Shown here: piece by piece, positions 15,356 through 45,623 of the stretch
Position numbering within the stretch: position 1 is the first letter of the stretch
Layout: each line of letters begins with the position of its first letter
Origin: an uncultured Methanosarcinales archaeon
GTDB lineage: Archaea > Nanobdellota > Nanobdellia > Woesearchaeales > DATDXC01
DNA: 64,000 nt
Assembly (NCBI GenBank): GCA_964510025.1
Contig: CAZDZV010000001.1
Coordinates: 63,949-127,948, forward strand
Direction of reading: 5' to 3'
Translations under genes and position numbers: made by a program
Notes under the pieces: generated by a model
Seen by the model: the letters and a program-made list of their open reading frames with translations, nothing else
Databases searched by the model: none
Told to the model about the DNA's origin: nothing

Positions 15356-15397
15356 CTCATTCGGCTGTAGGTAGATATGATTTAATAAGCTTTTGTT

Positions 15398-17062: not shown

Positions 17063-17359
17063 TTCAGACAGTAGTATAATGCCGCTGCATCCTTTTCCCC
17101 TAGTTTTTTGTTACACAACCTACAGTGTTTATTCATCTTGACCTCCAAGAAAAAGAAAAAAAATATTTAAAGCTTTTAGCAACATCCGCCTCCTCCCATT
17201 TTCTACTCACCTCCGCAGATAATCAACTGCCTTTTCTTCAGTATAAAGTATCATAATGTTATATAAATTTAGTTACTATAATAAATAAACATATATTATA
17301 ATTTTTTTATAATTTATAGTAAAATATATAAATATTCTTCTACTTCTCTATAATTTATA
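17063..17359. promoter_or_regulatory. AT-rich divergent intergenic region with TATA-like boxes
   Basis: About 300 bp at over 75% AT between divergent genes. Contains aaaatatataaatatt and tttataa immediately upstream of the ATG at 17360 (leaderless-type). Confidence 0.3.
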
Positions 17360-21713: not shown

Positions 21714-21799
21714 CAGGTCATGTAAATCGAGCTGCTATTAAAGTTTATCGGAAAGCTTAACAATAAACTTTATAAATGCTTTTGCAAATCTCTTCATTA

Positions 21800-27754: not shown

Positions 27755-28357
27755 ATGAGCGAAGAGAATAAACTTTTGGTATCGCAGGACCTGTATCTGA
27801 AATCAGGCATACATATTGGAACAAAGTTCAGGACTAAATACATGGAGCAGTTCATATATAAGACCAGGCCTGATGGATTATCTGTCCTGAATCTCCAGAA
27901 GATAGATGAAAGAATAAGCATAGTTGCCAGTCTATTAGCACACTACAAGCCTGAGGAAATCCTGATAGTATCCAGAAGAGAAAACGGATGGAAAGCTGTT
28001 AAGGAATTTGGAAAGGTCACTGGCATAAAGGTTGTAGCCGGCAGATATCCTCCGGGAATGCTGACCAATCCTGCACTGGAGATTTATCATGAGGCAAAAA
28101 TAATAATGGTTACAGACTCGTGGCCTGACAGAAATGCAATATTAGATGCAAATCAGATAGGCATCCCGGTAATTGCACTATGCGACACCAACAACCAAAG
28201 CAACAACATAGATCTTGTGCTGCCATGTAACAATAAGGGAAAGAAAAGCCTTGGCCTCCTATTCTGGATCCTCGCAAGAGAATATCTGAGAAAAAAAGGC
28301 ATCATAGGTGAAAATGAAGACCTTAAGGAAAAGATTGAGGATTTCACAGAGGATTAA
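27755..28357 (+). CDS. rps2: Ribosomal protein uS2
   Basis: LLVSQDLYLKSGIHIGTKFRTKYMEQFIY. Archaeal-size at 200 aa. Confidence 0.85.
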   Translation: MSEENKLLVSQDLYLKSGIHIGTKFRTKYMEQFIYKTRPDGLSVLNLQKIDERISIVASLLAHYKPEEILIVSRRENGWKAVKEFGKVTGIKVVAGRYPPGMLTNPALEIYHEAKIIMVTDSWPDRNAILDANQIGIPVIALCDTNNQSNNIDLVLPCNNKGKKSLGLLFWILAREYLRKKGIIGENEDLKEKIEDFTED

Positions 28358-29325
28358 ATAAGCTTTATCAGGTCTTTTATGGCTTTTTCTAAATCTTTTT
28401 TTTCAAAAAGTACCTTATACACCTGGGATGTAAGAAGCATCTCAATATCATTTTTTTTGCTGAATTCATAGACAGATTTGGCTGTTGTTATACCCTCTGC
28501 TATCATACCGTGCATATCTTCCTTGATTTCTTCAAATTTTTTTCCTTGGGCTATGCGGCGCCCGACAAATCGATTTCTGCTATGCTTGCTGGTGCATGTA
28601 GCAATTAGGTCCCCTACACCAGCTAATCCATAGATAGTCTTTCGTTTTGCCCCAAAAAATCTGCCGAACTTGTTCATCTCTGTCAAACCATAAGTTATTA
28701 TGGCGCCTTTGGCATTATCTCCAAAACCAAGTCCGTCGACAACGCCGCTTGCTATCGCGGTGATGTTTTTTATGGCTCCGCATATCTCTACACCTATTAT
28801 GTCATCATGCGGATAAACCTTGAAGTATGCGGTTTCCAGGCTTGGTTTGATCTTTTGCAGCATCTCCTGGTCTTCTGATGCTATTGTGGTTGCTGTTGGT
28901 ATTTTGCGTGCTACTTCTTCACAGTGGTTTGGTCCGGAAAGCGCAACTATCTCAGCTTTTCCTAGCTCTTCACCCAAAACCTGGCTCATCCGCTTATATG
29001 TTGATTGCTCTATGCCTTTAGCTACACTTACTATTATCGAATTTTTGCCTATGTAAGGAGCAAAATCTCTTGCAGTATGCCTCATGAATTGAGATGGCAC
29101 GGCAAAGATGATCATATCGGCTCCCTTAGCTAAACTGTAATCGTTAGCCAGAAGAAGCTTATCTGAAAGCTTGATGCTGGGCAGGAACCAAGTATTTACC
29201 CTGTCTTTTTTCATTATATCCAGCAGCTCTTTTTCCCTAATCCACAGGCTAACTTCATTCTTTTCTGACAGCATATTGGCTAATGTAGTGCCCCAGCCTC
29301 CTGCGCCAACCACTGTTATTCTCAT
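28354..29325 (-). CDS. gpsA: NAD(P)H-dependent glycerol-3-phosphate dehydrogenase (bacterial GpsA type)
   Basis: MRITVVGAGGWGTTLA Rossmann start, and a GpsA-like layout along the full 323 aa. Confidence 0.8.
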   Translation of the reverse strand: MRITVVGAGGWGTTLANMLSEKNEVSLWIREKELLDIMKKDRVNTWFLPSIKLSDKLLLANDYSLAKGADMIIFAVPSQFMRHTARDFAPYIGKNSIIVSVAKGIEQSTYKRMSQVLGEELGKAEIVALSGPNHCEEVARKIPTATTIASEDQEMLQKIKPSLETAYFKVYPHDDIIGVEICGAIKNITAIASGVVDGLGFGDNAKGAIITYGLTEMNKFGRFFGAKRKTIYGLAGVGDLIATCTSKHSRNRFVGRRIAQGKKFEEIKEDMHGMIAEGITTAKSVYEFSKKNDIEMLLTSQVYKVLFEKKDLEKAIKDLIKLI

Positions 29326-29972
29326 TTGAAGTTATACTCCTGGTTTGTCAGCTTACCTATCTCCTTCATGACTTTTGTGGTTATTTTTCTTAGAGCGGCA
29401 TAATCGTTCTCTTTTCCGTAATAATCCTGAAAATACATTAATCTACCTATATGCATGTCTGCCTTTTTAAACCTTGGTATAAGTTTTCCTTTTGGGAGTA
29501 TGCTAAAGGTCCCCCTTAACCCTACTGGCAGAACAGGTACCCTTGCGTTCAAAGCAAGCCTTGCCACTCCTGTCTTCGCCCTTAGCAGCTTTCCTGTCAT
29601 CGACCTAGTGCCTTCTGGATGCAAGGATATAATCTTCCCCTGCTTTAGGGCCTTGATGGCCCAGACAACTGCCTCTTTCCCCCCTTTTTCACGGTCTACG
29701 GGTATTGCGTCTGCCCACCTGTGGAATGCTTTTTTTAGCGGACTGTCAAAATGCTCTTTTTTGGCAAGAAAATGGATGCGCTTATTAAGATAGTTGATAA
29801 ATACTGTAGAGATAATAAGATGGTCCATATATGATGCATGATTAGCAGCGATTATGAAACCCCTGTCTTTTGGAATATTTTCGAGCCCGGTAATCTTCCT
29901 AATATAAGGGGACATTAACACCTTAAAAACTCGTTTCCCTATTTCATGTACCATTCTAATACCTATATTCAA
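29322..29972 (-). CDS. 1-acyl-sn-glycerol-3-phosphate acyltransferase family (PlsC-like)
   Basis: HX4D motif ANHASYMDHL, FPEGTRS motif, and a PVLPVG block. Confidence 0.75.
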   Translation of the reverse strand: MNIGIRMVHEIGKRVFKVLMSPYIRKITGLENIPKDRGFIIAANHASYMDHLIISTVFINYLNKRIHFLAKKEHFDSPLKKAFHRWADAIPVDREKGGKEAVVWAIKALKQGKIISLHPEGTRSMTGKLLRAKTGVARLALNARVPVLPVGLRGTFSILPKGKLIPRFKKADMHIGRLMYFQDYYGKENDYAALRKITTKVMKEIGKLTNQEYNFK

Positions 29973-30603
29973 GGCCTGCCAGTCCTGCGATCCTCTCCAT
30001 TATTACCCTAGTAACATGATTCAATACCCGCTGGCTCTTCTCTTTTCCAAAATATTTGTTAAGGTGCATAGGTCTTCCAATATTTATTTCACATCGCTTA
30101 AATCCAGGAACCTTCGCTCCCTTAGGCATTATCTCATGGGTGCCTACAGAGCCGATTGGAATTACAGGAACCTGGGCTGTCAGGGCAAGTTTTGCTACGC
30201 CTGTCTTTGCTTTCATCAGGCTACCATCAATCGACCTATGACCTTCTGGAAATATGCCCACTATCTCTTTTTTCTTCAAGCAATGCAAAGCGAGCTGAAA
30301 TGCTTTTTCGTTTATTCTTTTTGCCTCTGCAGTTGATTCATCCACACGGACAGGGATGCATCTCCCCCATTCAAGAAATTTTCTTAAAAAAAAGTTTTTG
30401 TAGAAACGATCGTTGCAGTACATATGCACATATCTATTCAGATAATTCATCAACAAAGTAGGCAAAATCAGATCATCGGCAAAACTTCCATGGTTGGCAG
30501 CGAATATAAATACCGGCTCCTTGAGCTTTTCCAATCCATTAACCTTTCTTATCCAAAGCCTCACAGCTGGTACCAGACTAATTCTAGCAATAGGATAGAC
30601 CAT
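29956..30603 (-). CDS. 1-acyl-sn-glycerol-3-phosphate acyltransferase family (PlsC-like), second copy
   Basis: HX4D motif ANHGSFADDL, FPEGHRS, PVIPIG. It overlaps the previous gene. Confidence 0.75.
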   Translation of the reverse strand: MVYPIARISLVPAVRLWIRKVNGLEKLKEPVFIFAANHGSFADDLILPTLLMNYLNRYVHMYCNDRFYKNFFLRKFLEWGRCIPVRVDESTAEAKRINEKAFQLALHCLKKKEIVGIFPEGHRSIDGSLMKAKTGVAKLALTAQVPVIPIGSVGTHEIMPKGAKVPGFKRCEINIGRPMHLNKYFGKEKSQRVLNHVTRVIMERIAGLAGLEYRY

Positions 30604-31769
30604 TATTCTTTAAGCTCTTTGATTAGCGCTTCCAAAAATTGCTTGGCATCTGCAACAATACCGTAATCCGCTATTGAAAAAATCATAGCATTAGGATCCT
30701 TATTTATAGCAACAATGATTTCTGAATTCTGCATGCCCGCCCTATGCTGTATTGCCCCTGAAATACCACAGGCAATATACATTCTTGGGCGGACGGTCTT
30801 TCCGGTCTGGCCTACTTGATGATCTTTGGAAATCCATCCTTCATCTACCACTGCCCTTGAAGCTCCTACTTCAGCACCCAGCAAAGAAGCCAGCTCTTCC
30901 AGTAATTTGAAATTTTCTTTCTTACACAGCCCCCTCCCACCTGAGACGATAATCTTGGCATCATCCAAATTTGCCTTTTTCTTCTGACCTTTGATAATAT
31001 TGACAATCTTTGTCTTGCTGTCTTTATCTGTTATTTTGGCATCAACTTTGATAATCTTTCCTTCTCTTTTTTCATCCTTTGGACAAATCTCAAATATTCC
31101 CGGCCGCACTGTTGACATCTGGGGGCGGTGCTTAGGACATTTAATCTGTGCCATTATATTGCCGCCAAATGCAGGTCTTGTCTGTAAAAGCAGGCCGTCG
31201 TTGTCAATATCCAAACCTGTACAGTCTGCAGTCAATCCTGTATCGATACGCTGCGCAATCCGGGGGGCTAAGTCCCGCCCGATATTGGTGGCGCCATATA
31301 TCACTATCTGGGGATTTTCTTTTTGTATTAGTTCAGATATGACCTTTGCATATGGATCCGTCCTGTAGTCTTTAAGCTGCTTGTTTTCAAACAGGTAGAC
31401 TTTATCTGCGCCATGCTGGATCAGCTGCTCAGACAAAGAATCCTGCTTTTCACAGGCAAGCACAGCTCCTACCTGCACATTTAGTTTTTGTGCAAGCGCT
31501 CTTGCCTTACCCAGAATCTCAAATGATACTCTTGATATCCTATTATTTCTCTGCTCTGCAAATATCCAGACCTCATCTCCATCCTTTCTCTTCTGTTTTG
31601 CAGGCTTTACCGTGTAAACCTCGACGTATCTATTGTCTATTGCATTTTGCAGATCCAGCGAATCGCTTACGTCAGCATAATCGTCTCCCTTATTAAGGAC
31701 TACCCCGTTTATAGTAAGCGAAAATCCCGGATAATCATCTTTTAGTCTAACTTTTACCATTTCAATCAA
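30603..31769 (-). CDS. etfA: Electron transfer flavoprotein alpha subunit
   Basis: C-terminal FAD block IVAINKDPNAMIFSIADYGIVAD. It carries an N-terminal extension of about 70 aa. Confidence 0.8.
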   Translation of the reverse strand: MIEMVKVRLKDDYPGFSLTINGVVLNKGDDYADVSDSLDLQNAIDNRYVEVYTVKPAKQKRKDGDEVWIFAEQRNNRISRVSFEILGKARALAQKLNVQVGAVLACEKQDSLSEQLIQHGADKVYLFENKQLKDYRTDPYAKVISELIQKENPQIVIYGATNIGRDLAPRIAQRIDTGLTADCTGLDIDNDGLLLQTRPAFGGNIMAQIKCPKHRPQMSTVRPGIFEICPKDEKREGKIIKVDAKITDKDSKTKIVNIIKGQKKKANLDDAKIIVSGGRGLCKKENFKLLEELASLLGAEVGASRAVVDEGWISKDHQVGQTGKTVRPRMYIACGISGAIQHRAGMQNSEIIVAINKDPNAMIFSIADYGIVADAKQFLEALIKELKE

Positions 31770-32550
31770 ATTTCTGGATCATTTCTTTTTGCTTAAACTC
31801 ATCAATAAGCTTTGTGGCCATCTCCTTAACATTTCCCTTGAGCATCTCGCCGGGTGATTTTGCACTGGGAGTGAATGTCTTCTTCACTTTGGTTGGGCTT
31901 GACTTAATTCCTACCTTGCTATCCTGTACATTAATGTCCTTGGCAGACCAAATGACCATCTCTTTTTCAAATGACTTATCTATCCCCTCTAGGGTAGGAT
32001 ATCCCGGATCATTCAGATTGGCTGTGCATGTCAGCAAAACCGGAAACTTTGACTCAATTATCTCATATCCATCTTCCAGTTCCCTTTCAGCAACCACCTT
32101 TTCCCTTTCAACACTTATTTTCTGCACGTAAGTTATCTGGGGTATATCCAAAGACTCCGCAAGCTGGGGCCCGACCTGGGCTGTATCGCCGTCAATCGCT
32201 TGCCTCCCACAAAGCACCATGTCATAGTCTTTTATCTTATTTATTGCTGCAGCCAGGGCGTTTGCCGTTGCCCAGGTATCTGAACCGGCAAACTTAATGT
32301 CTGAAAGGAGAATCGCCTGGTCAGCGCCCATAGCAAGCGCTTCCCTCAGGGCATCTTCTGCTTGCGGCGGGCCCATCGTGATTACTGTGACCTTAGATTT
32401 GTCCTTAATTCTAATTGCTTCTGCTATTGCATTTTTGTCCTCTGGGTTGATTATGGTGGGGACACCTTCCCTTATCAAACGGCCTGTTTTGGGATCTATC
32501 TTAACCTCTGTTGTATCGGGCACCTGTTTAATGCAGACAATAATGTGCAT
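31762..32550 (-). CDS. etfB: Electron transfer flavoprotein beta subunit
   Basis: MHIIVCIKQVPDT start typical of EtfB. 262 aa. Confidence 0.8.
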   Translation of the reverse strand: MHIIVCIKQVPDTTEVKIDPKTGRLIREGVPTIINPEDKNAIAEAIRIKDKSKVTVITMGPPQAEDALREALAMGADQAILLSDIKFAGSDTWATANALAAAINKIKDYDMVLCGRQAIDGDTAQVGPQLAESLDIPQITYVQKISVEREKVVAERELEDGYEIIESKFPVLLTCTANLNDPGYPTLEGIDKSFEKEMVIWSAKDINVQDSKVGIKSSPTKVKKTFTPSAKSPGEMLKGNVKEMATKLIDEFKQKEMIQKFD

Positions 32551-32551
32551 C

Positions 32552-33706
32552 TTAGAAACCCCTACCGAGCAGCTGTGCAGCTATAACCAGGCGCTGAATC
32601 TCGCTAGTGCCCTCATATATCTCCGTAATCTTGGCATCCCTGTAAAGACGCTCTAAAGGATAATCCTTCATATAACCGTAACCTCCATGAATCTGGATTG
32701 CTTTCCGGGTAACATCCATTGCTACCTCCGATGCGAACAGTTTAGCCATAGCTGCTTCTTTTATGTATTTCTTCTTCTGATCTTTGAGATATGCTGCCCT
32801 GAAACAAAGGAGCCTGGCTGCCTCTATCGATGTGGCCATGTCTGCAAGCATAAACTGAATCGATTGGAACTTGTGCAACTTCCTTTTAAACTGTTCCCTT
32901 TCATTCACATATTTCAGTGATTCCTCATATGCAGCCTGGGCTATGCCAACTCCTTGCGCGCCTATTCCGATTCTTCCTGAATCTAAGGTCCACATCGTCT
33001 GCATAAATCCCCTTCCTTCAATACCTCCAATAAGGTTGGCTTGGGGCACGCGCATATCCTGAAAGATTATCTCTGATGTATTGCTGCCTCTAAGGCCTAG
33101 CTTGTCTTCCTTTTTCCCTACACTGAAGCCTGGAGTCTTTTTTGGCTCGACTATAAAAAGTGAAATGCCCTTATAGCCCGCGCTTTTATCTGTCATAGCA
33201 ACAATATTTATAAGATCGGCCACCCCGCCGTTGGTGATAAAAATCTTGCTCCCGTTTATTATAAATTCATCCTTGTCTTTCACTGCTGTCGTCTGAACAT
33301 TTGATGCATCGCTTCCTGCATTCGGTTCAGTCAGGGCAAAAGCCCCAAGATATTTACCTGAAGCAAGCAAAGGCAGAAATTTCCTTTTCTGTTCTTCTGT
33401 ACCGTAATTTACTATCGGGCCGCAGGCCAAGCTTGTATGGGCCCCCATCGTCACCGCGGTTGCGTTGCATGCTCGCGACATCTCCTCCATTATTATTGTC
33501 TGAGAAACAGCATCCAGCTCGGCCCCCTTATACTTCTTGGGTATCGACATGCCCATTATTCCTAGCTGTGAAAGCTTCTTGATCTGCTCTGAAGGAAAAA
33601 TCTCTCTCTGATCAGCTTCAGCGGCAAAGGGCTTAACTTCCTTTTCCGCGAACGCATGGATCATGCTTTTTATCATCAACTGCTTTTTAGTAAAGCTAAA
33701 GTCCAT
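32552..33706 (-). CDS. Acyl-CoA dehydrogenase (butyryl-CoA dehydrogenase-like)
   Basis: ACAD N-terminal, middle and C-terminal domains. Catalytic Glu in YEGTSEIQ. 384 aa. Confidence 0.85.
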   Translation of the reverse strand: MDFSFTKKQLMIKSMIHAFAEKEVKPFAAEADQREIFPSEQIKKLSQLGIMGMSIPKKYKGAELDAVSQTIIMEEMSRACNATAVTMGAHTSLACGPIVNYGTEEQKRKFLPLLASGKYLGAFALTEPNAGSDASNVQTTAVKDKDEFIINGSKIFITNGGVADLINIVAMTDKSAGYKGISLFIVEPKKTPGFSVGKKEDKLGLRGSNTSEIIFQDMRVPQANLIGGIEGRGFMQTMWTLDSGRIGIGAQGVGIAQAAYEESLKYVNEREQFKRKLHKFQSIQFMLADMATSIEAARLLCFRAAYLKDQKKKYIKEAAMAKLFASEVAMDVTRKAIQIHGGYGYMKDYPLERLYRDAKITEIYEGTSEIQRLVIAAQLLGRGF

Positions 33707-33719
33707 TGTTTCCCCCCGA

Positions 33720-34454
33720 TTAAATCATCATCGCACCATCTACACGAATTACCTGGCCCGAGATATATCTGGCGCTGTCTGATGCAAGAAATACCGCCAA
33801 GTCAGCAACATCCTTCGGCGTTCCCATCTCCCTAAAGGATATAATCTCAAGTATCTTATCTAACATGACAACAGGTATCTTTTCTGTCATCCTGCTTTTT
33901 ATGAAACCAGGAGCGATGGCATTGACTGTTATTTTATGCTTTCCCACTTCCTTAGCCAATGATTTTGTAAATCCAATAATACCTGCTTTAGTTGCAGCAT
34001 AATTACACTGCCCAAAATTTCCGCCAAGGCCCACGACAGAGGATATGTTAATAATCCTTCCTCCCTCAGGTATCAGGGGTAGCATGTTATGGGTAACATT
34101 ATAGATTCCTGTTAAATTAACATTAATAACAGCGTTCCATTCCTCGGGCGTCATTTTTTTCAGTGTCCTGTCCTTTGTTATCCCTGCATTATTGATGAGA
34201 ATATCAACTTTCTTATGCTTGTCCTTTATTTCTTCTGCCATAGATTTGCAGTCTTCAAAATTAGATACATCAGCCGTCACGACGTAGGCCTCTACACCGA
34301 GATCCTTAAGCTCTGCTGCGAATGAGTTCGCCTGATTTTCAGCTGATTTAATGTCATTTATAATGATATTTACCCCTTGTTTAGCTAGTTCTAGAGCAAT
34401 GGCCTTTCCAATGCCCTGAGAAGCACCAGAAATCAAAGCAAATTTTCCTTTCAT
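33720..34454 (-). CDS. 3-oxoacyl reductase (FabG-like SDR)
   Basis: Rossmann ISGASQGIGKA, NNAG, and a YxxxK catalytic motif. Start taken at the internal MKGKFALISGAS. Confidence 0.8.
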   Translation of the reverse strand: MKGKFALISGASQGIGKAIALELAKQGVNIIINDIKSAENQANSFAAELKDLGVEAYVVTADVSNFEDCKSMAEEIKDKHKKVDILINNAGITKDRTLKKMTPEEWNAVINVNLTGIYNVTHNMLPLIPEGGRIINISSVVGLGGNFGQCNYAATKAGIIGFTKSLAKEVGKHKITVNAIAPGFIKSRMTEKIPVVMLDKILEIISFREMGTPKDVADLAVFLASDSARYISGQVIRVDGAMMI

Positions 34455-34738
34455 TAAATCACCCAAAAAAAAAGAAATTGTGAGCATATTTAAATTTTTC
34501 TAAACGTTAGATTTATAAATAAGTCTTGAATTCAATTCCCCATGAGCAATAGATACTACAGCAACAGATTGAGAAAAATAGAAAAGAAAAAGCTCAAGGT
34601 CAGAAGAAGAAAAAGCAGACCAAAATCTTTTAAGACAGAGGAAGCCGCCAGAAAATGGGCGGAATCTAACAAGATTAAAAAATATGTCCTGAAAGACCTG
34701 AAAACAGGGGATAAGAAGAAGATTATAGTGGTAGCTGA

Positions 34739-35863
34739 TTAGACTTTCTTTAGTATATGGCATGTAGTTGTGCCGCCCGCTCCTCCGATGTTATGTGCCA
34801 GTGCAATTTTAGTCCGTGTGAGCTGACGATCTCCTGCCTTGTTTCTCATCTGCTCCACTATTTCATAGATCATCCCAAGCCCTGTAGCTGAGACAGGATG
34901 ACCTTTTGCCTTCAATCCCCCAGAAGTGTTTATAGGCAGCCTGCCATCTATGTTAACATAACCATCCCTTATAAGCTTATACGCCTCTCCTTTTTTGCAG
35001 AAACCGATATCTTCATAAGCGATAAGCTCAACGCTGGTGAACGCGTCATGAACCTCCGCAAAATCAATATCTGATCTCTGCAAATTGGCCTGTTTAAAAG
35101 CCTCGTTGGCTGTAACGACAGAACCATCCCATGTTGTCATATCATCTCTTTCAAAAGGAAGAGGATCGGTGCACAAAGAAGACGCCAGAATCTTAACTTC
35201 TGTTTTGTCTTTTGTCAAAACTGCAGCAACAGAGCCATCTACGCTTATGCTGCAGTCAAAGAGCCTGAGAGGGGAAGTTACGATATGAGCATTCTTGATA
35301 TCTTCAAAAGACACCTTTTTCTTGTAAAAATAGGCCTTTGGGTTCAGGAATGCGTTCTCATGGTTCTTAAAGGCCACTAATGCAAGGTCATCTGTAGTCG
35401 TATCTGGATAGTTATCAAGGTATTGCTGGGCAATCAATGCATTTTCTCCTGGAAAGTTCAATCCTTCCAATTGTTCCCATCTTGATTCAGCTGCCATACC
35501 GAACTCTTCAGTAATATGCTCGGTGTTCCTTGTATTACCATGCAGCTTTTCAACTCCCACGGCGAGTATATTGTCGTAGCCAATCCTATTTGCTGTCCAT
35601 AAAGCGGCTCCTCCACCTGCACATGCTGCTGGCACCCTGATTATAGGGATATTTTTTTTTAGCATACCTGATAGCATTGAAGAAAAATGCCGTTGAAATT
35701 CTCCAGTATAAAACCATTCCAAGGTACTGCACACAACAGCATCGATCTTATTAAGGGAAATGTCTGCATCTTTCAGGGCCTCAGTTATGGCCTGGTAGGC
35801 CAAAAGATGGGAGGGTTTGTCGTGAATCCTGTATGGTGTTGAACCTACCCCCTTAATGTACAT
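34739..35863 (-). CDS. Archaeal-type thiolase (SCP-x/acetyl-CoA C-acyltransferase-like)
   Basis: Active-site VPAACAGG and a thiolase fold. 374 aa. Confidence 0.7.
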   Translation of the reverse strand: MYIKGVGSTPYRIHDKPSHLLAYQAITEALKDADISLNKIDAVVCSTLEWFYTGEFQRHFSSMLSGMLKKNIPIIRVPAACAGGGAALWTANRIGYDNILAVGVEKLHGNTRNTEHITEEFGMAAESRWEQLEGLNFPGENALIAQQYLDNYPDTTTDDLALVAFKNHENAFLNPKAYFYKKKVSFEDIKNAHIVTSPLRLFDCSISVDGSVAAVLTKDKTEVKILASSLCTDPLPFERDDMTTWDGSVVTANEAFKQANLQRSDIDFAEVHDAFTSVELIAYEDIGFCKKGEAYKLIRDGYVNIDGRLPINTSGGLKAKGHPVSATGLGMIYEIVEQMRNKAGDRQLTRTKIALAHNIGGAGGTTTCHILKKV

Positions 35864-36392
35864 TTACTTCACCATACCCAATTTCCAGTGCCTTCCTGTT
35901 TAGACCTATCAGCTGTTCTTTCCCCTTAAGTACTATTGGGAGAGCCTGAAACGCAGATTTGATATTTAGAATGTTCCGGCTACCAATATATGCTCCGACA
36001 AGTATGAGATTGGCTACTTTCTTATTACCTAGCTGTTCTGCCAGCCTGGTGGCTTCAATTCCTATCTTATTGAGGTCTTTTCTTGCAGGACTTACCCTAC
36101 ACTCAGATGTGTTCAGTATGATGAGTCCTTTCTTCTGAATCAGGGGTTCAAACCTTTCGAGTGATGGCTGATTCATTATGATAGCAGTGCTAGGATTTAC
36201 GACAACAGGAGAACCGATGGGTTTATCAGAGATGATTGCTGTTGAATTGGCAGTGCCTCCGCGCATCTCTACCCCATAGCTAACCATGCCGCATGTATGC
36301 AGGCCCTGTTCCATGGCGGCGTTAGCTATCAATGAGCCCGCCAACACAACACCCTGACCACCATATCCTGCACACGTAATTTTATCTATCAT
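35853..36392 (-). CDS. korG: 2-oxoacid:ferredoxin oxidoreductase gamma subunit
   Basis: CAGYGGQGVV start typical of KorG/PorG. Confidence 0.75.
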   Translation of the reverse strand: MIDKITCAGYGGQGVVLAGSLIANAAMEQGLHTCGMVSYGVEMRGGTANSTAIISDKPIGSPVVVNPSTAIIMNQPSLERFEPLIQKKGLIILNTSECRVSPARKDLNKIGIEATRLAEQLGNKKVANLILVGAYIGSRNILNIKSAFQALPIVLKGKEQLIGLNRKALEIGYGEVNVH

Positions 36393-37173
36393 TGTCTCTA
36401 AAAACCCCCAAGGGAAAATACTCTTGCATCTGTTCCACGAACTTGATGCTATCTTTCATGTCTTTATGCCAGTTTGTAGGGCACATTGACAGAACTTCAA
36501 CAAAACTATAGCCTTTGCCATCAAGCTGGTATTGGAAAGCTTTCTTTATCGCGTTTCTTGTCCTTTTTATATTTGCGGCGCTGTTGACTGCTACCCTTTC
36601 AATATAAGAGGGCGCTTCAAGTACCGATAGAAGCTCACACATCTTGATAGGAGGGCCTTCTTGATTTCTGCCCCTGCCTTCCGGAGTGGTCGTAGTCCTC
36701 TGCCCGGGGATTGTCGTTGGAGCCATCTGGCCACCTGTCATTCCGTATACTGCGTTGTTAATAAAAATCACAGTTATATTTTCGCCTCTGTTTGCCGTAT
36801 GAATCGTCTCATTTGTTCCAATCGCCGCCAAATCACCGTCACCCTGGTAGGCGAAAACCAGTTTATCTGGCAGACATCGCTTTATTGCCGACATCACAGA
36901 TGGGACCCTGCCGTGGGCGCACTCAATAACATCGATATTAAAGTAATTGTAAAAAAGAACCGCACAACCTACGGGGGCGCTAGCTATTGTCTTTTCTCGA
37001 AGATTCATCTCATCCAGAATTTCTCCAATCAGCCTGTGTACGATGATATGCCCGCAGCCCGGACAGTAGTGCATCCTTGCATCTTTTAGTGATTTGATCG
37101 ACTTAGCATCCTGATTCTTTTTTGGAGCATAATCGTGCTCTTCTGTCAGCTCGTATCTTCTATATGGTTTCAT
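36382..37173 (-). CDS. korB: 2-oxoacid:ferredoxin oxidoreductase beta subunit (TPP-binding)
   Basis: CPGCGH motif and a GDG TPP motif. Start taken at MKPYRRYE, giving an ATGA overlap with the korA stop. Confidence 0.8.
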   Translation of the reverse strand: MKPYRRYELTEEHDYAPKKNQDAKSIKSLKDARMHYCPGCGHIIVHRLIGEILDEMNLREKTIASAPVGCAVLFYNYFNIDVIECAHGRVPSVMSAIKRCLPDKLVFAYQGDGDLAAIGTNETIHTANRGENITVIFINNAVYGMTGGQMAPTTIPGQRTTTTPEGRGRNQEGPPIKMCELLSVLEAPSYIERVAVNSAANIKRTRNAIKKAFQYQLDGKGYSFVEVLSMCPTNWHKDMKDSIKFVEQMQEYFPLGVFRDNDR

Positions 37174-38222
37174 ATTATTTCCTGAATCTTTTTGAATATC
37201 TGTTCGGTATCCGGATACCAGCCACCGCCATGTCCAAGAAAATGATATTGCCCTTTGCATTCGGTGGACAGTCTCACGTCCTCTATAAACTGGCCCTCAC
37301 TCATCTCTACTATGAGAAAAGTTTTTTCTGCATATTTCCTGAATATGGACTTAGGGAAGGGCCACAGGGCAATTGGTCTAATCATGCCCACCTTCAACCC
37401 GTTTTCCCTTGCTACATCCACTGCCTCCCTAGAAACTCGCGCCGAGATACCATATGAAGCTATCAGAATATCCGCATCCTTGGTCTCGTATTCCTCGCAG
37501 AGCTGCAAATCCTTCTCAATCTTTCTGTACTTCTTCTGCAGATGTATATTATGCTTTACAAGCAGATCAGGAGGTCTGAGCAAAAGCGTTTTTATGATGT
37601 GGGGTGATCTACCTTCACAACCTGTCAGAGTCCAGCTGTCTTTTCTTGGAAGCTTTAGGATCGGATTATAGGGCCTCATTTCAACAGGCTCTACCATCTG
37701 GCCCATTATCCCATCTGAAAGAACCATCACCGGATTTCTGTAATAATCTGCAAAATCAAATGCCTTCATCATCAGGCCATATAGTTCTTGCAGATTTGAG
37801 GGTGAAAGCACTATAAGACGATAATCTCCATGGCCACCGCCTTTTGTGGCTTGAAAATAATCTCCCTGAGAACCGCGGATATTGCCTAGGCCTGGCCCTC
37901 CCCTCTGCATGTTGACAATGACGCATGGAAGCTCTGCTGCTGCTATATAAGAAATACCTTCCTGCTTTAAGGCGATGCCCGGGCTGCTTGATGAAGTCAT
38001 ACATCTTGTCCCTGTTGAAGCCGCCCCGAACAGCATGTTAATTGCTGACAGCTCTGCCTCTGCCTGTATGAAGATGCCTCCTGCCTCAGGCATAAAAATT
38101 GACATATATTCCGGCACCTCGTTCTGGGGAGTTATAGGATAGCCGGCATAGAACCTGCATTTTGCTGCAATGGCTGCATGAACCAGGGCTTCATTTCCTT
38201 TCATAAGTCTTTTTTCATGCAT
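37170..38222 (-). CDS. korA: 2-oxoacid:ferredoxin oxidoreductase alpha subunit
   Basis: GNEALVHAAIAAKCRFYAGYPITP start typical of KorA/PorA. Confidence 0.8.
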   Translation of the reverse strand: MHEKRLMKGNEALVHAAIAAKCRFYAGYPITPQNEVPEYMSIFMPEAGGIFIQAEAELSAINMLFGAASTGTRCMTSSSSPGIALKQEGISYIAAAELPCVIVNMQRGGPGLGNIRGSQGDYFQATKGGGHGDYRLIVLSPSNLQELYGLMMKAFDFADYYRNPVMVLSDGIMGQMVEPVEMRPYNPILKLPRKDSWTLTGCEGRSPHIIKTLLLRPPDLLVKHNIHLQKKYRKIEKDLQLCEEYETKDADILIASYGISARVSREAVDVARENGLKVGMIRPIALWPFPKSIFRKYAEKTFLIVEMSEGQFIEDVRLSTECKGQYHFLGHGGGWYPDTEQIFKKIQEII

Positions 38223-39351
38223 TTTGCTTAATAAGTCTTGATCCGATCGCTGGCTTCAGCTCTATCCGGCAGGCATCTAGCTCATCTCCAACAGTGACAA
38301 TCTCCCTGAGGTCTCCAGATCCTATGCCTAGCCTTTCTGCTGCATCAATTAAGGGTATTTTTCTCAGCATCCCTATTTCTTGGAAAACCTTATCCAACGC
38401 TACAGGATCCTTTGATGCGAGAAGCATATTCAGGAAAGCTGGTTCTCCGTATTTCAACGGGCCGTTGCCTTGCATCCCGATTGAGGCATCTCCCAGAGTA
38501 ATGTACCTAGGCAGCACCTTATGCAGATGTGCAATTGCATCAAGGGCCTTCAACGGATCCCTTGCCATTTCTTTATAATTTTCTTTTGAGACCAGCCTGG
38601 TCATATTTTCAAGGGCGCCTGAAATTCCCAAAAGCAGATGGGTTTTCATCACTGGTACATTTATCACCAGATCTTTAGTTGCGATCTCCTTAGTCAGCTG
38701 AAACCTGAACCCCCCTGATTCTTTTTCAACATAATCTGTCTGGGACAAATCTACCAACCTTATGCCCCATTTCTTGCAGAGCTTGCCGAAGCCAGATTTC
38801 CTTGCAGCATTATCAAAGTCTCCATACTGGACCTGTTCGGCAACCACGATATTTTCAGCGCTGGCTCCTTTTTTTGTGAGATATTCTATCAAAGAATCAA
38901 CAACCCTGGGATTTGTAGTAATAGCCATATATGGATAAGCTGCTGCCATAATATTCGGTTTTATCAGGATATTTGAATCCTTCTCAATATCGACATCCCC
39001 TATCAAAGAGAAAGCCTGTTTTGTTGCCTCAAAAAAATCATACTTGATTTTTATGATCGATACTGCACTCTCATCTTCACTCTTTTCCCACCGATATTCA
39101 TCCCCAATCTTATATTCTCTCATCGTCTTCTTCGGCATCCGGTTTCCGTGCTCATCCTCTAGAATAAGAGTGTAGTAAGGGACTATAGGGTGCATGATAG
39201 AAGGAATGGTGACTTCTGTAAGTCCAATAACCTTTGTTTTATTTCCCACCTGTTTCGATATCTTTGCATTACAGTAGATACATTCTTCAATAGGATATAT
39301 CCACTTTTTTTTGCATTTTTTACATATCCATCTTATTATCAACTCAACCAC
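38215..39351 (-). CDS. DUF35-like Zn-ribbon/OB-fold N-domain fused to a DUF362-like C-domain
   Basis: N-terminal CKKCKKKW...CIYCN Zn ribbon plus OB, like the thiolase scaffold protein. The C-terminal 280 aa resemble DUF362. It overlaps the next thiolase by 8 bp. Confidence 0.45.
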   Translation of the reverse strand: MVELIIRWICKKCKKKWIYPIEECIYCNAKISKQVGNKTKVIGLTEVTIPSIMHPIVPYYTLILEDEHGNRMPKKTMREYKIGDEYRWEKSEDESAVSIIKIKYDFFEATKQAFSLIGDVDIEKDSNILIKPNIMAAAYPYMAITTNPRVVDSLIEYLTKKGASAENIVVAEQVQYGDFDNAARKSGFGKLCKKWGIRLVDLSQTDYVEKESGGFRFQLTKEIATKDLVINVPVMKTHLLLGISGALENMTRLVSKENYKEMARDPLKALDAIAHLHKVLPRYITLGDASIGMQGNGPLKYGEPAFLNMLLASKDPVALDKVFQEIGMLRKIPLIDAAERLGIGSGDLREIVTVGDELDACRIELKPAIGSRLIKQNA

Positions 39352-40468
39352 CCATTTTCCTAAAAATATGTACGCTTATGGTAGCTCCAACCCCACCAAT
39401 ATTTTGGGTCAGGCCATATCTGTGCCTTGAAACCTGTCTTTCTTTACATTCCCCTCTAAGCTGCTTAACAATTTCGTATATCTGCGCCATGCCTGTCGGG
39501 CTTATAGGGTGGCCTCTAGCTTTCAAACCCCCACTAACATTGACTGGAAGCTTTCCATCTAAATTTGTGATACCCTCCCTTATTAGCTCCGCACCTTTCC
39601 CTTTATTGCAGAAGCCAAGATCTTCGTAGCTCATTAGTTCAAGAATGGTAAATGCATCATGAAGTTCTGCAACGTCAATATCCTTAGCTGATATTCCTGA
39701 ACTTTTATATGCCTGACCCGCCGCTTCTTTCGTGGCCTTCAGTTCTGTCAGGCTCTCTCTTTCGAAGGTCATAAGATAGTCTGTAGCTAATCCAGAGCCT
39801 GCTACCTCGATATCTGACTTATCCTTAGTCAAAACCGCTGCCGCTGCCCCATTCACGCTTATACTACAATCATACAGCCTGAAAGGCGAGGCAACTATTG
39901 GGGATCCCTTTATGGCTTCCAAGGTAACCTTTTTTTTATAGAAATGCGCTTTCGGGTTTAAATATGCATTCTCATGATTCTTGTGAGCAATCATTGCAAG
40001 GTCATCCGAAGTGGTGCCAAATTCCAGCATGTGCTGTTGTGCCAGGAGCGCATTTTCCGCGGGAAACACCAATCCTTCTGGCTGGCTCCATATCCTATCA
40101 GCAGCCGTAAGAATCTCATTTGTAACCACTTCTGTCTTATTGCAGGCTAATTTTTCAGTAGCCAGCACAAGCACATTATCATATTGCAGCCTAAGCGCTG
40201 TCCAGAATGCGGCCCCGCCCCCACCACAAACAGCGGGAACCCGTATTATAGGTATTTTTGTCTTGAAAAGAGAACTGACAATGGATGGATAGTGCCTCTG
40301 CCTTTCATCTGTGTGGATAGTGTCACTTGTAGAAATCACCATTGCATTTATGTCTTTAAGTGAAACGTCTGATTCATCCAAGGCCTCGTAGGCTGCTTCA
40401 TAGGCCATACCTGCAGTTGTCCTATCGGCCAAAGAAAATTTAGTCATGCCAACGCCTTGAACATACAT
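39344..40468 (-). CDS. Archaeal-type thiolase, paralog of the 34739-35863 gene
   Basis: VPAVCGGGGAAF active-site region. Same length at 374 aa and collinear similarity. Confidence 0.7.
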   Translation of the reverse strand: MYVQGVGMTKFSLADRTTAGMAYEAAYEALDESDVSLKDINAMVISTSDTIHTDERQRHYPSIVSSLFKTKIPIIRVPAVCGGGGAAFWTALRLQYDNVLVLATEKLACNKTEVVTNEILTAADRIWSQPEGLVFPAENALLAQQHMLEFGTTSDDLAMIAHKNHENAYLNPKAHFYKKKVTLEAIKGSPIVASPFRLYDCSISVNGAAAAVLTKDKSDIEVAGSGLATDYLMTFERESLTELKATKEAAGQAYKSSGISAKDIDVAELHDAFTILELMSYEDLGFCNKGKGAELIREGITNLDGKLPVNVSGGLKARGHPISPTGMAQIYEIVKQLRGECKERQVSRHRYGLTQNIGGVGATISVHIFRKMGG

Positions 40469-40476
40469 ATGAGCAC

Positions 40477-41010
40477 CTATTTAAAAGCTGGACTATGCTG
40501 GCTCCTGAACTCCTTCCTGTCAACAACAGCCAACATCAGGGTTGATTCTGCTATAATCTTGTTATCCTTAAGGACCTTACCCTGCAATAGGGCTCCCCTA
40601 TCATCCTGCCCCATAAGGGCCACTTCGTAAGTCAATTGATCACCTGGAAAAGCCGGCGCAGAAAATTTGGCATCCTTAATCTTATAGGCCAGGACATCCT
40701 TGGAATGGTGATCTTCCAGATTGTATCTCACTAGGAGCGTAGCAGCTTGTCCCATCCCCTCTACTATGAGGGCACCGGGCATTATAGGAAAACCCGCAAA
40801 ATGACCCTTTACATACCATTCGTTAGCTGTCACATTTTTCACAGCCACTATCTTATTTTTATCCAATCCCGCCACCTTATCTATCATCAAAAAGGGGTAT
40901 TCGTATGGAATTATCTGCCTTATGGCATTCATATCCAGCTGGCCTTTTTGATCCTTTAAATCGTCTATCGATTTCATTTTTAACCCCCCGCAATTTGGCA
41001 TTTTTAGCAA
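40477..41010 (-). CDS. 3-hydroxyacyl dehydratase (FabZ-like hotdog)
   Basis: IPYEYPFLMIDKV...HFAGFPIMPGALIVEGMGQ matches FabZ IPHRYPFLLVDRV...HFPG.PVMPGVL..EAMAQ. Confidence 0.75.
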   Translation of the reverse strand: MLKMPNCGGLKMKSIDDLKDQKGQLDMNAIRQIIPYEYPFLMIDKVAGLDKNKIVAVKNVTANEWYVKGHFAGFPIMPGALIVEGMGQAATLLVRYNLEDHHSKDVLAYKIKDAKFSAPAFPGDQLTYEVALMGQDDRGALLQGKVLKDNKIIAESTLMLAVVDRKEFRSQHSPAFK

Positions 41011-41104: not shown

Positions 41105-42955
41105 ATGAAAAAGAAAGGAAAAATAGAGAAATTGCTTAACAATTCACTGATGAAAATTGTGCAGGGCTACAGACTGTTTAGAAGAACACTTAAAAAAACA
41201 AAACAGGCTATGCCTGAGGTTTATGGCCAGATAGATAATGTTCTCAAGCAGAATCTCGTTACCTTTGAAAGAAACAACCAGAGCTTCTCTGATGCGATTG
41301 TTGACAGGCTTATCAGAAAGCTCCCAACTTTAGGTGAGGAGAAGCTGACCAAAATAATAAACGGCGGTTCTTCAAAGTCTTTTTTTGATATGCTAAATAA
41401 GAGCCTCGGAGCGACCCTGGAAGAGGAGAAAGACTATACAAAGCTGGAAAAAGAAAAGCTGTTTAACAGCATCCTTATAGCTAACAGGGGAGAGATCGCC
41501 CTTAGGATCATAAGAGCTTGTAAGGAACTAGGAATCAAAGTCTATGTGATTTACTCCAAACCTGAAAAAAATACACTTTTTGTCAAATTTGCAGATAAGG
41601 CTTATTGCATTGGAAACCCCAGAGACTATCTGAACATCAGGAAGATAATCAAAATAGCCAAAAAAGCAAAAGCAGATGCTATACATCCTGGATATGGATA
41701 CTTATCTGAAAATTCCCAGTTTGCCAAGCTTTGCCTAAAAAACAAAATAAACTTTATAGGACCGAATATCAAGGCACTAGAGCTTATGGGCAACAAGGTT
41801 AAAGCCAGAAAGATAATAAGCAAAATGGGAATAAATGTTATAGCAGGAACAGTCACTCCCCTTAAAAATCTGGAAGACGCACAGTCAGCTGCCCAGGAAA
41901 TCGGCTATCCTGTTATATTGAAGGCCGCTTTGGGCGGCGGCGGCAAGGGCATGCGAGTTGTCTATTCAGGGGATAAGCTTGAAACGGCATTCAAAAGCGC
42001 CTCAACTGAAGCGCAAGCTGCATTTGGTGATCATTCTTTATATATGGAAAAATACATAGAAAAACCAAAGCATATTGAGTTTCAGATTTTGGCAGATAAA
42101 TTCAAGAATATTGTCCATTTGGGAGAAAGAGACTGCAGCATACAAAGAAGGCATCAGAAGCTTATTGAAGAGGCTCCGTCAACGGTATTGAATGGGAAAT
42201 TAAGAGAAAAAATTGGAAAAGATGCCAGAAGAATAGCCTCCAAAATAGGGTATAAGGGTGCTGGAACAGTTGAGTTCCTGCTAGATAAGAGAAAAAATTA
42301 TTATTTTATGGAAATGAACGCGCGTATACAGGTAGAACATGGAATAACTGAGATGATAAGCGGGGTAGATCTTGTTAAGGAGCAGATAAGAATCGCCGCC
42401 GGAGGCAAGCTTACCTATAAACAGGAAGATATCAAGCTCAACGGGTGGGCTATAGAGTGCAGGATAAATGCTGAGAACCCGTTTGATGATTTTAAACCTA
42501 GCACTGGCATTGTCACTAATTATTTACCTCCAGGTGGCCGTGATATACGTATATCAAGCCATTCGTACACAGGGCATGTCATATCTCACCATTATGATCC
42601 GCTCATCTCAAATCTTATATGCGGGGGTAAGAACAGAAATGAGGCAATCGCCAGAATGAAGAGGGCGCTTGAAGAATATATTATCGAGGGCGTACAAACC
42701 AATATCCCTTTTCATAAGCTAGTAATGCAAGATAAGGATTTTATCAAAGGCAATATAAGCACAGATTTTATAGAAAAAAATAAAATAATTGAAAAGCTGA
42801 GAAAGCACAAGATTAGGAAAAAAGAGCTTTCAAAAAAGGAAAAATTACTCATAATAACGACAGCTGTATCCAGATATATGGAGGGCAGAGAGAATGATGC
42901 TCCGGACAACTGGGTTATCGCAGGTAGGCAGGAACAGCTAAATCAAAATGTTTAG
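41105..42955 (+). CDS. accC: Biotin carboxylase (acyl-CoA carboxylase subunit) with N- and C-terminal extensions
   Basis: NSILIANRGEIALRIIRA and the ATP-grasp GGGGKGMR motif. An N-terminal extension of about 110 aa is not present in canonical AccC. Confidence 0.8.
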   Translation: MKKKGKIEKLLNNSLMKIVQGYRLFRRTLKKTKQAMPEVYGQIDNVLKQNLVTFERNNQSFSDAIVDRLIRKLPTLGEEKLTKIINGGSSKSFFDMLNKSLGATLEEEKDYTKLEKEKLFNSILIANRGEIALRIIRACKELGIKVYVIYSKPEKNTLFVKFADKAYCIGNPRDYLNIRKIIKIAKKAKADAIHPGYGYLSENSQFAKLCLKNKINFIGPNIKALELMGNKVKARKIISKMGINVIAGTVTPLKNLEDAQSAAQEIGYPVILKAALGGGGKGMRVVYSGDKLETAFKSASTEAQAAFGDHSLYMEKYIEKPKHIEFQILADKFKNIVHLGERDCSIQRRHQKLIEEAPSTVLNGKLREKIGKDARRIASKIGYKGAGTVEFLLDKRKNYYFMEMNARIQVEHGITEMISGVDLVKEQIRIAAGGKLTYKQEDIKLNGWAIECRINAENPFDDFKPSTGIVTNYLPPGGRDIRISSHSYTGHVISHHYDPLISNLICGGKNRNEAIARMKRALEEYIIEGVQTNIPFHKLVMQDKDFIKGNISTDFIEKNKIIEKLRKHKIRKKELSKKEKLLIITTAVSRYMEGRENDAPDNWVIAGRQEQLNQNV

Positions 42956-45585: not shown

Positions 45586-45623
45586 CCTTCGCCCCCGAAT
45601 GCCACAAATAGCAAACATCCTAG

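Follow-up and report, generated by a model that had tools for sequence, protein, structure and literature searches.

We analysed a 64-kb stretch of DNA (64,000 nucleotides; hereafter, the window) from contig CAZDZV010000001.1 of the archaeal assembly GCA_964510025.1, which GTDB places in the Woesearchaeales. Three contiguous, head-to-tail open reading frames (ORFs) on its minus strand encode an acyl-CoA dehydrogenase (ACAD) and the two subunits of an electron-transfer flavoprotein (Etf). The genome data cover this window, and the absences reported below hold within it. The Bcd-like ACAD (32552-33706, minus strand; 384 amino acids) matches three ACAD Pfam domains (E values of 2e-55 to 2e-29) and is the proposed enoyl-CoA reductase subunit. 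It is followed on the same strand by the small subunit EtfB (31762-32550; PF01012), the predicted site of a bifurcating FAD and of NADH, and by the large subunit EtfA (30603-31760; 385 amino acids; PF01012 and PF00766, the latter at 8e-40), predicted to carry the electron-transfer FAD. The ORF listed for EtfA spans 30603-31769, but translation probably begins at the ATG at 31760, and the resulting 385-residue form is identical to a database protein (P0001). The gene calls and coordinates that a preliminary description of the window had given are correct.

The genes are tightly packed. Gaps of 1 nt separate ACAD from EtfB and EtfB from EtfA, and the EtfA stop codon shares a base with the start codon of a gene for a PlsC-type acyltransferase (TAATG). 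The minus-strand genes between 28.3 and 41.0 kb form one nearly gap-free run with junctions of 1-nt gaps or overlaps, and the sole break lies between a second thiolase gene and FabG. An 87-amino-acid minus-strand ORF in this break (34500-34763) is probably not a gene. The break also holds a very basic 66-amino-acid ORF on the plus strand (34503-34703; MSNRYYSNRLRKIEKKK...), at a place where relatives have unrelated insertions. By eye, a TATA-like sequence, TTTAAATA, is found at 34487-34494, about 36 nt ahead of the FabG ATG. Scans of the window gave no match in Rfam and a single tRNA-Leu with ARAGORN; no RNA element is involved.

Bifurcating-type features of the trio

By sequence, EtfB groups with experimentally bifurcating EtfBs and not with the AMP-binding canonical ETF-beta. 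We compared it with five solved bifurcating chains (CarD, Clostridioides difficile, T. maritima, A. fermentans and LctB), which gave 302.6 (6fah_B), 281.6 (5ol2_B), 215.6 (7koe_A), 203.4 (4kpu_B) and 184.2 bits (7qh2_B). Canonical ETF-beta chains reached 111 (1efv_B), 91 (1efp_B), 89 (1o94_C) and 45 bits (5ow0_B), so that the best bifurcating score stands approximately 190 bits above the best canonical one. Around the second (bifurcating) FAD we examined the segment G(R/K)QAIDGDTAQVG. In the window it reads GRQAIDGDTAQVGP, from residue 115, and is letter-identical to CarD and to C. difficile EtfB; the second-FAD site on which the preliminary description had made bifurcation depend is thus in place. 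The segment of human ETFB aligned opposite it is presumably GKQAIDDDCNQTGQ.

The other two subunits point in the same direction. The best solved relatives of EtfA are CarE (6fah_A, 1e-106) and the C. difficile subunit (5ol2_A, 8e-102), and its TRPAFGG motif (residues 194-200) is invariant in 100 homologues. The Arg of this motif is the one (R146) that, in AfETF, forms a hydrogen bond with N5 of the bifurcating FAD (PMC12042025). An AlphaFold2 (AF2) model of the window EtfA (mean pLDDT of 81.6) has 5ol2_A, 4kpu_A, 7koe_B and 6fah as its top Foldseek matches. Among solved structures, ACAD is closest to C. difficile Bcd (5ol2_C, 3.6e-138, 464 bits, 60% identity), and the catalytic Glu of the YEG motif, equivalent to E376 of medium-chain acyl-CoA dehydrogenase (MCAD), is conserved. 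The earlier concern that this ACAD might have no reductive homologues is met by that ranking, as C. difficile Bcd works reductively.

We compared the trio with two known systems. It has the same subunits as the Bcd-EtfAB complexes of C. difficile and A. fermentans (5ol2, 4kpu/4l1f), in the same order acad-etfB-etfA, with identities of 60, 55 and 53%; the bifurcating-FAD region of EtfB is identical, and both the catalytic Glu of ACAD and the Arg of EtfA are retained. It differs in that the host is an archaeon, that FabG, FabZ and an archaeal thiolase with a DUF35 partner replace Hbd, Crt and the classical thiolase, that the module is predicted to be co-transcribed with PlsC and GpsA, and that EtfA has an extra, cysteine-free domain of 63 residues. 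The caffeyl-CoA reductase of A. woodii, CarCDE (6fah), offers the best solved match for both EtfB and EtfA, and CarE also has an extra N-terminal domain, of about 65 residues. The window ACAD, however, is nearer to Bcd than to CarC (6fah_C, 7e-104, 351 bits). Assignment of the trio to bifurcating-type Bcd-EtfAB is therefore well supported by sequence. The trio is best explained as a flavin complex of the Bcd-EtfAB type, bacterial (Firmicutes-like) in origin, whose host belongs to the Woesearchaeota; its three subunits are predicted to assemble and to bifurcate electrons.

The preliminary description had noted an N-terminal extension of about 70 amino acids on EtfA and suggested that it could be the extra domain of bifurcating Etfs. 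The extension is real: 63 residues precede the Etf core (31572-31760, minus strand), made up of a mini-domain (residues 1-48) and a disordered Lys/Glu linker (approximately residues 50-60). In the AF2 model, residues 1-48 form a compact unit of four strands, a helix and a strand (pLDDT of about 82). It lies where CarE carries its ferredoxin domain, yet it contains no cysteine and so cannot bind Fe-S clusters; Pfam finds no match in the extension, and no Fer4 match in the window EtfA. Among the 120 best EtfA homologues, 97 carry an extension with at most two cysteines, and 8 have a 2x[4Fe-4S] domain there instead. Those eight (P0078, P0079, P0089, P0092, P0094, P0099, P0109 and P0114) have 8 (or 9) cysteines in their first 75 residues, compared with none in the window EtfA.

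In the cluster-bearing Woesearchaeota-type EtfAs, as in CarE, the domain lies where the extension does and matches it in size, and basal forms (P0079, P0094 and others) keep the 8-Cys 2x[4Fe-4S] pattern of CarE. Approximately half of the cysteine-poor forms retain one 'CP', and MAFFT aligns the residual 'CP' and a 'Q.AI' with the Fer4 motifs. In a rough neighbour-joining tree of EtfA, the Fer4-bearing Woesearchaeota forms branch first. Alignment of the extension with Fer4 N termini by hhalign gave a probability of 7% and matched only the linker, and Foldseek aligned only the Etf core of EtfA with CarE (323 columns). Descent of the extension from a ferredoxin domain is plausible, on the grounds of position, size and the rough tree, but not demonstrated. 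A cluster-free extension is no argument against bifurcation, because the bifurcating structures 5ol2 and 4kpu lack such a domain altogether.

Conserved gene order and neighbouring lipid genes

We scanned species-representative genomes with EtfA, which yielded 9 Woesearchaeota-type and 42 non-Woesearchaeota loci, and traced the upstream half of the cluster by a metagenome scan with FabZ and two look-ups of DUF362 homologues. The 9 Woesearchaeota-type loci have, up to the limits of their contigs, the order thiolase-DUF362-KorABG-thiolase-FabG-ACAD-EtfB-EtfA-PlsC-PlsC-GpsA, followed by ribosomal protein S2. At 45-82% amino-acid identity, the part from FabG to GpsA (FabG-ACAD-EtfB-EtfA-PlsC-PlsC-GpsA) recurs on a 400-kb JGI contig as well as in loci L002-L009, L018 and L059, and the order is kept in at least 11 other assemblies. 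PlsC 1 directly follows EtfA in every Woesearchaeota-type locus. The upstream half (CT-BCCP-thioesterase / BirA-BC / FabZ-thiolase-DUF362) recurs in L052, L053, L056, L059 and the 400-kb JGI contig; biotin carboxylase adjoins FabZ in L056, L057, L059 and the JGI contig, and the 4HBT thioesterase is kept in L056, L059 and the JGI contig. Unrelated insertions are tolerated: in L006 and L059, for instance, genes for an epimerase and an aminotransferase separate KorA from KorB. Because the order survives both insertions and divergence to 45-82% protein identity, it suggests selection on linkage. The arrangement of the trio and its neighbours is far beyond chance.

The genes downstream of the trio, like those of the rest of the run, lie on the minus strand. 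They encode PlsC-family acyltransferase 1 (29956-30603; PF01553, 3.1e-21), PlsC-family acyltransferase 2 (29322-29972; PF01553, 3.7e-30; TIGR00530, 97 bits, cut-off 103) and GpsA, a bacterial-type NAD(P)H glycerol-3-phosphate dehydrogenase (28354-29325; PF07479, PF01210, PF20618). The HX4D motif is present in both acyltransferases. Directly upstream of ACAD is a FabG-type 3-oxoacyl reductase of the short-chain dehydrogenase/reductase family (33720-34454; adh_short_C2, 1.7e-64), which scores 292.7 bits against TIGR01830, under the cut-off of 297.75, and passes the cut-off of the FabG subfamily model NF009466. Beyond the break follows thiolase 2, of archaeal/SCP2 type (34739-35863; Thiolase_C_1, 1.2e-44; thiolase domain-containing protein in NCBIfam). 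Next are the subunits of a 2-oxoacid:ferredoxin oxidoreductase (KOR): the gamma subunit KorG (35853-36392; PF01558, 1.6e-31), the thiamine-pyrophosphate-type beta subunit KorB (36382-37176; PF02775, PorB_KorB subfamily) and the VorB-like alpha subunit KorA (37170-38222; POR_N and PFOR_II; PDB matches 1yd7 and 8ys5). For KorB we took the ATG at 37176 as the start codon, since this removes a 90-nt overlap with KorA. KorA scores 498.7 bits against the NCBIfam VorB (2-oxoisovalerate) model NF005507 (cut-off 399).

A fusion protein (38215-39351; DUF362, 2.8e-40) with a DUF35-like N terminus (Zn ribbon, CxxC...CxxC, plus OB fold) is the presumed partner or scaffold of a thiolase. Pfam found no DUF35 match in this N terminus, and only the fold search showed it. 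In an AF2 model (pLDDT of 89.4), the N-terminal stretch of approximately 100 residues matches DUF35 chains by Foldseek (E values of 3e-4 to 2e-3), namely ChsH2 (6ok1_D), BbsA (7pxp_E), the thiolase/HMGCS complex of M. thermolithotrophicus (6esq_F) and PhlB (5m3k_B). The predicted fold of the DUF362 half resembles LarA, of the nickel-pincer racemases (Foldseek, 2e-7). At E <= 1e-5 this family of fusion proteins numbers 338; among the best 120, those with a source name come from Woesearchaeota or Nanoarchaeota. Next to it lies thiolase 1 (39344-40468; Thiolase_C_1, 2.3e-48), which best matches archaeal acetyl-CoA acetyltransferases in the PDB (7yvy, 1.4e-62; 6esq_A, 4.6e-55), with the nucleophilic Cys aligned. 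The run ends with a FabZ-type (R)-3-hydroxyacyl dehydratase (40477-41010; PF07977), which scores 122.2 bits against the NCBIfam FabZ equivalog NF000582 (cut-off 113).

Divergent from FabZ, on the plus strand, are biotin carboxylase (BC; 41105-42955; Biotin_carb_N, CPSase_L_D2 and Biotin_carb_C) and the biotin protein ligase BirA (42948-43637; PF03099 and PF02237). The first 120 residues of BC (41105-41464, plus strand) are an N-terminal extension with no Pfam match, and homologues of 629-646 amino acids on other contigs suggest that it is conserved. Farther along, back on the minus strand, we found a 4HBT-type acyl thioesterase (45624-46055; PF13279, PF03061), a biotin carboxyl carrier protein (BCCP; 46530-46913; PF00364, 1.7e-19) and an acyl-CoA carboxyltransferase (CT; 46917-48452; PF01039, 2.2e-185). 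Because BC, BirA, BCCP and CT are all present, the neighbourhood encodes a complete acyl-CoA carboxylase (ACC). Genes for defence against oxygen and reactive oxygen species also lie around the cluster (43634-45618, minus strand, and 14482-18471): two rubrerythrins, a desulfoferrodoxin, a ferritin and a rubredoxin-fused protein with a glutamate-synthase domain. At the corresponding place, L056, L059 and the 400-kb JGI contig lack the pair found at 43634-45618.

Several enzymes were sought in vain. Pfam scans and tblastn found neither FabI nor FabK in the window, and Pfam found no PP-binding, ketoacyl-synt or Acyl_transf_1 domain in the scanned window ORFs. The tblastn search for acyl carrier protein (ACP) was negative in the window and the Woesearchaeota loci and positive in the bacterial loci. 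Hbd and Crt, with C. acetobutylicum queries that we take to be correct, were absent by tblastn from the window and from every Woesearchaeota locus and found only in L037 and L044. The window also has no butyrate kinase, Ptb, CoA transferase, acyl-CoA synthetase or (S)-specific hydratase.

The host is archaeal. The flanking genes include those for archaeal-type ribosomal proteins S2, S13, S4, S11, L13 and S9, RadA, a family B DNA polymerase, the A subunit of topoisomerase VI and an Rpb3-like subunit, and the same flanks (S2, LigT, TRAM and RadA) recur in other assemblies. Those of the closest EtfA homologues (55-75% identity) that have a source name come mostly from metagenome-assembled genomes (MAGs) of Woesearchaeota or 'Nanoarchaeota archaeon' (DPANN), with one from Candidatus Nomurabacteria. 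We also considered recent transfer or mis-binning, and rejected both in view of the GC content (0.41-0.46, compared with 0.39-0.43 in the flanks) and the archaeal genes on both sides. The window further encodes AspRS with a GAD domain (21776-23545, plus strand), LeuRS with a PF13603 editing domain (52587-55232, plus strand), queuine tRNA-ribosyltransferase (19127-20344, plus strand) and two Vut_1 transporters (10873-11577 and 21000-21713, both minus strand), features that we take to be typical of bacteria. A queuosine pathway has been described in DPANN archaea (Castelle et al. 2021), and the queuine tRNA-ribosyltransferase and Vut_1 genes fit it. An 1,853-amino-acid protein with a subtilase domain and a thrombospondin type 3 repeat (3724-9285, minus strand), adjoining a Kelch-repeat protein, may be a surface or host-interaction protein.

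Published genomes suggest an ester-lipid setting. The four MAGs of Woesearchaeota subgroup J that carry Bcd-EtfAB lack GGGPS and DGGGPS, according to Huang et al. 2021 (PMC8421398), and 'bacterial fatty acid synthesis' genes, including glycerol-3-phosphate dehydrogenase, have been reported in Woesearchaeota (Castelle et al. 2021, PMC8204110). The window encodes a full-length, bacterial-type Lgt (11599-12369, minus strand; PF01790, 5.7e-64; E. coli Lgt 5azb, 3.9e-32). No archaeal Lgt homologues had been identified according to a 2025 Nat Commun paper (PMC12462473). Because Lgt uses phosphatidylglycerol, its presence fits an ester-lipid membrane.

A candidate enoyl-CoA reductase and its alternatives

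We propose that the trio is an NADH-driven, ferredoxin-reducing enoyl-CoA reductase that closes an ACP-independent fatty-acid cycle feeding ester-lipid synthesis. This is the best-supported reading; it rests on the conserved gene order, and we put its probability at roughly 0.55. If the trio works like the solved complexes of C. difficile and A. fermentans, NADH would reduce the FAD held by EtfB; one electron would then pass downhill through the FAD of EtfA and the FAD of ACAD to a trans-2-enoyl-CoA, and the other uphill to ferredoxin. Two rounds would convert 2 NADH, oxidized ferredoxin and enoyl-CoA into 2 NAD+, reduced ferredoxin and acyl-CoA. The potentials are about -10 mV for crotonyl-CoA/butyryl-CoA, -320 mV for NAD and -420 mV for ferredoxin, and the coupled reaction still yields about -40 kJ/mol. 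The thiolase condensation could therefore be pulled while reduced ferredoxin is returned.

In the proposed cycle, a thiolase with its DUF35-DUF362 partner would carry out the condensation, FabG the reduction of the 3-oxo group and FabZ the dehydration of the (R)-3-hydroxyacyl thioester. ACAD-EtfAB, the enoyl-reductase candidate because it is the only one seen in the cluster, would reduce the enoyl thioester in a fourth, strongly exergonic step that pulls the unfavourable condensation. The acyl-CoA products would be esterified by the two co-transcribed PlsC proteins to glycerol-3-phosphate from GpsA, giving phosphatidic acid, and KOR and ACC would supply starter and extender units. We infer the direction of the reaction, the chain length and the use of acyl-CoA as the PlsC donor.

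The preliminary description had already suggested that, if run reductively, the trio supplies the missing enoyl reductase for the FabG/FabZ/thiolase set. Its lipid context is now strengthened by ACC, the thioesterase, the DUF35-type partner, the two PlsC genes and GpsA, but 'missing' holds only for the 64-kb window, and one relative (L008, below) has a FabK-like gene beside FabG. The same description had pointed to KorABG, a ferredoxin-reducing enzyme, as a neighbour of the trio. KorABG does lie on the same strand about 2 kb away, 2.1 kb upstream of the trio. At least three relatives (the 400-kb JGI contig, L008 and L057) have no KorABG in the cluster, however, and KOR cannot donate electrons to a reductively running Bcd-EtfAB because both reduce ferredoxin. 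KOR is dispensable in some relatives. Its likely role, as the VorB-like match suggests, is the supply of acyl-CoA starters, possibly branched.

Two known routes help to place the proposed cycle. Experiments on Sulfolobus acidocaldarius have established that a thiolase/DUF35/SDR/dehydratase system acting on CoA esters makes fatty acids, with a separate enoyl-CoA reductase for the final step (Schmerling et al., bioRxiv 10.1101/2024.07.05.601840). The pairing of thiolase with DUF35 appears, from the predicted fold, to be common to both. The Sulfolobus reductase is described as NADPH-dependent, whereas the candidate in the window is a three-subunit flavin complex that is expected to reduce ferredoxin; in the window, moreover, DUF35 is fused to DUF362, the dehydratase is of FabZ type, and ACC and PlsC/GpsA are linked. 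The reductases of type II fatty-acid synthesis, FabI, FabL, FabK and FabV, hold the same pathway position and carry out the same chemical step as proposed for the trio. In fold and cofactor logic, however, the trio is unrelated to them and belongs to none of these families, and it presumably acts on a CoA and not on an ACP thioester.

Several observations weigh against the proposed reductase role. An acyl-CoA carboxylase, which makes malonyl-CoA, fits poorly beside thiolases that use acetyl-CoA. Sequence does not reveal which way the reaction runs, and FabI/K/V, ACP and archaeal lipid genes could lie beyond the 64-kb window. Locus L057 (46% FabZ identity) has ACC-FabZ-thiolase-DUF362-FabG with neither ACAD-Etf nor PlsC-GpsA at the site. 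In L008 (MAG YT1_182), a FabK-like NMO gene (5199-6128) and four CoA-transferase genes (2136-5189) lie ahead of FabG-ACAD-Etf; this locus also has a separate thiolase-DUF35 pair, and an EtfA that keeps the 2x[4Fe-4S] domain, followed by PlsC-PlsC-GpsA. Finally, the acyl pocket of ACAD resembles that of short-chain Bcd, and acceptance of C12-C18 chains has no support there: at MCAD positions 95/96/99/100/166/255 the residues are A/V/G/A/F/G, compared with G/V/S/A/F/G in C. difficile Bcd, although C. difficile Bcd itself has small residues at 95 and 99, which limits what this mapping says of chain length.

The short-chain pocket is one reason to consider the main rival, a fermentative module in which Bcd-EtfAB, the thiolases, FabG and FabZ turn acetyl-CoA into butyryl- or caproyl-CoA, re-oxidise NADH and provide reduced ferredoxin for a hydrogenase or Rnf, as happens in Clostridia, the lipid genes being functionally unrelated. 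Huang et al. 2021 (PMC8421398) give such a scheme with Rnf and an [FeFe] hydrogenase, the L008 cluster has its four CoA-transferase genes, and the thioesterase near the trio could release a free acid. We nevertheless regard this explanation as unlikely. Neither the window nor the Woesearchaeota loci have Hbd or Crt, FabG and FabZ are (R)-specific enzymes of biosynthesis, and the window lacks butyrate kinase, Ptb and CoA transferase. Furthermore, butyrate fermentation has no use for BC, BCCP, CT and BirA, all of which the cluster nevertheless conserves, and EtfA is translationally coupled to PlsC at a junction found in every relative.

Run in reverse, the same complex might instead oxidise acyl-CoA from scavenged host lipids to enoyl-CoA, with reduced ferredoxin from KorABG driving the reduction of NAD+ (confurcation). 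Bcd-EtfAB is reversible in principle, KorABG in the same cluster would supply the reduced ferredoxin, and DPANN archaea are thought to scavenge lipids (PMC11868695). This is improbable, because the window lacks an acyl-CoA synthetase, an (S)-specific hydratase and Hbd, ACC, BirA, PlsC and GpsA point to synthesis, and three relatives retain ACAD-Etf or the remainder of the cluster but have no KorABG in it.

An ordinary, non-bifurcating ETF-ACAD pair is less probable still. Huang et al. 2021 considered bifurcation unlikely and called the EtfAB of four subgroup J MAGs non-bifurcating (PMC8421398), and the N-terminal domain of EtfA in the window has no cluster-binding cysteine. Their systems contain the same trio, from the same phylum, and a Firmicutes origin was inferred there too. 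Two of their MAGs are among our loci, however, and the segment GRQAIDGDTAQVGP is present in both (YT1_182, L008; Yap2000.bin4.8, L009), as it is in the window, CarD and C. difficile EtfB. The approximately 190-bit preference of EtfB for bifurcating over canonical ETF-beta, the PF00766 domain of EtfA, and solved bifurcating EtfABs (5ol2, 4kpu) that have no ferredoxin domain also argue against their call.

Equally remote is a role in acyl-chain modification, in which ACAD-Etf would dehydrogenate a saturated acyl thioester, a FabX-type backtracking step for anaerobic unsaturated fatty acids, and would not serve as the general enoyl reductase: H. pylori FabX, a flavoenzyme, dehydrogenates acyl-ACP in the course of fatty-acid synthesis (PMC8626469), and such a role would explain the FabK-like gene beside the module in L008, but it leaves the window cluster with no enoyl reductase, the oxidation needs no bifurcating, NADH-oxidising Etf, and no isomerase partner is evident.

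Bacterial parallels and significance

A link between Etf and fatty-acid synthesis genes is also seen in bacteria. We found fab-linked CarE-type EtfBA, with or without ACAD, in 13 of the 42 non-Woesearchaeota loci, all from MAGs of anaerobic bacteria. Four of these loci (L019, L023, L026 at 6006-14798, and L033) have the order yceD-plsX-ACAD-etfB-etfA-fabD-fabG-acpP-fabF, or the part of it that their contig covers. The order etfA-fabD-fabG-acpP-fabF or a close variant occurs in L032, L034 and L038, and etfB-(Fer4)etfA-fabD in six loci of Thermodesulfovibrionales/Nitrospirae (L020, L021, L022, L024, L030 and L045). Because the fab-linked bacterial EtfAs form a clade apart from those of Woesearchaeota in the rough tree, the link between Etf/ACAD and lipid synthesis has arisen or been kept more than once.

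Bcd-EtfAB as a kind of system is already known, and its presence in Woesearchaeota has been published. New are its fixed place in an archaeal lipid operon, the cysteine-free domain of EtfA and the evidence against the published 'non-bifurcating' call. The accessible part of Huang et al. 2021 (PMC8421398) draws no link to the adjacent PlsC, GpsA, Fab and ACC genes. A literature search that covered few subscription journals found no paper on an Etf-dependent enoyl reductase in fatty-acid synthesis, none that connects Woesearchaeota Bcd-EtfAB to lipid genes and none on the bacterial arrangement.

We tentatively suggest, at somewhat less than even odds, that ACAD-EtfAB represents a fifth class of enoyl reductase in fatty-acid synthesis, and an energy-conserving one. 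In Woesearchaeota it might complete a self-contained, ACP-free route from acetyl-CoA to phosphatidate, which would build a bacterial-type ester membrane in an archaeon that lacks GGGPS and DGGGPS and return reduced ferredoxin in each round. In anaerobic bacteria (Desulfobacterota-like, Thermodesulfovibrionales/Nitrospirota and others) the CarE-type EtfBA placed within plsX-fabD-fabG-acpP-fabF, with or without ACAD, might do the same job on acyl-ACP.

If the proposed role is correct, the trio would fill the reductive gap and so complete a fatty-acid and ester-phospholipid pathway in archaea that reportedly lack the ether-lipid enzymes. These archaea would then build bacterial-type membranes themselves instead of stealing them, a possibility that could be tested with a defined 20-kb set of genes. 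The synthesis of membrane lipids would yield reduced ferredoxin and not only consume reducing power. The published judgement that the EtfAB of Woesearchaeota cannot bifurcate would, on the sequence evidence, stand corrected. The bacterial parallel hints that many anaerobes share this solution and that it has escaped notice.

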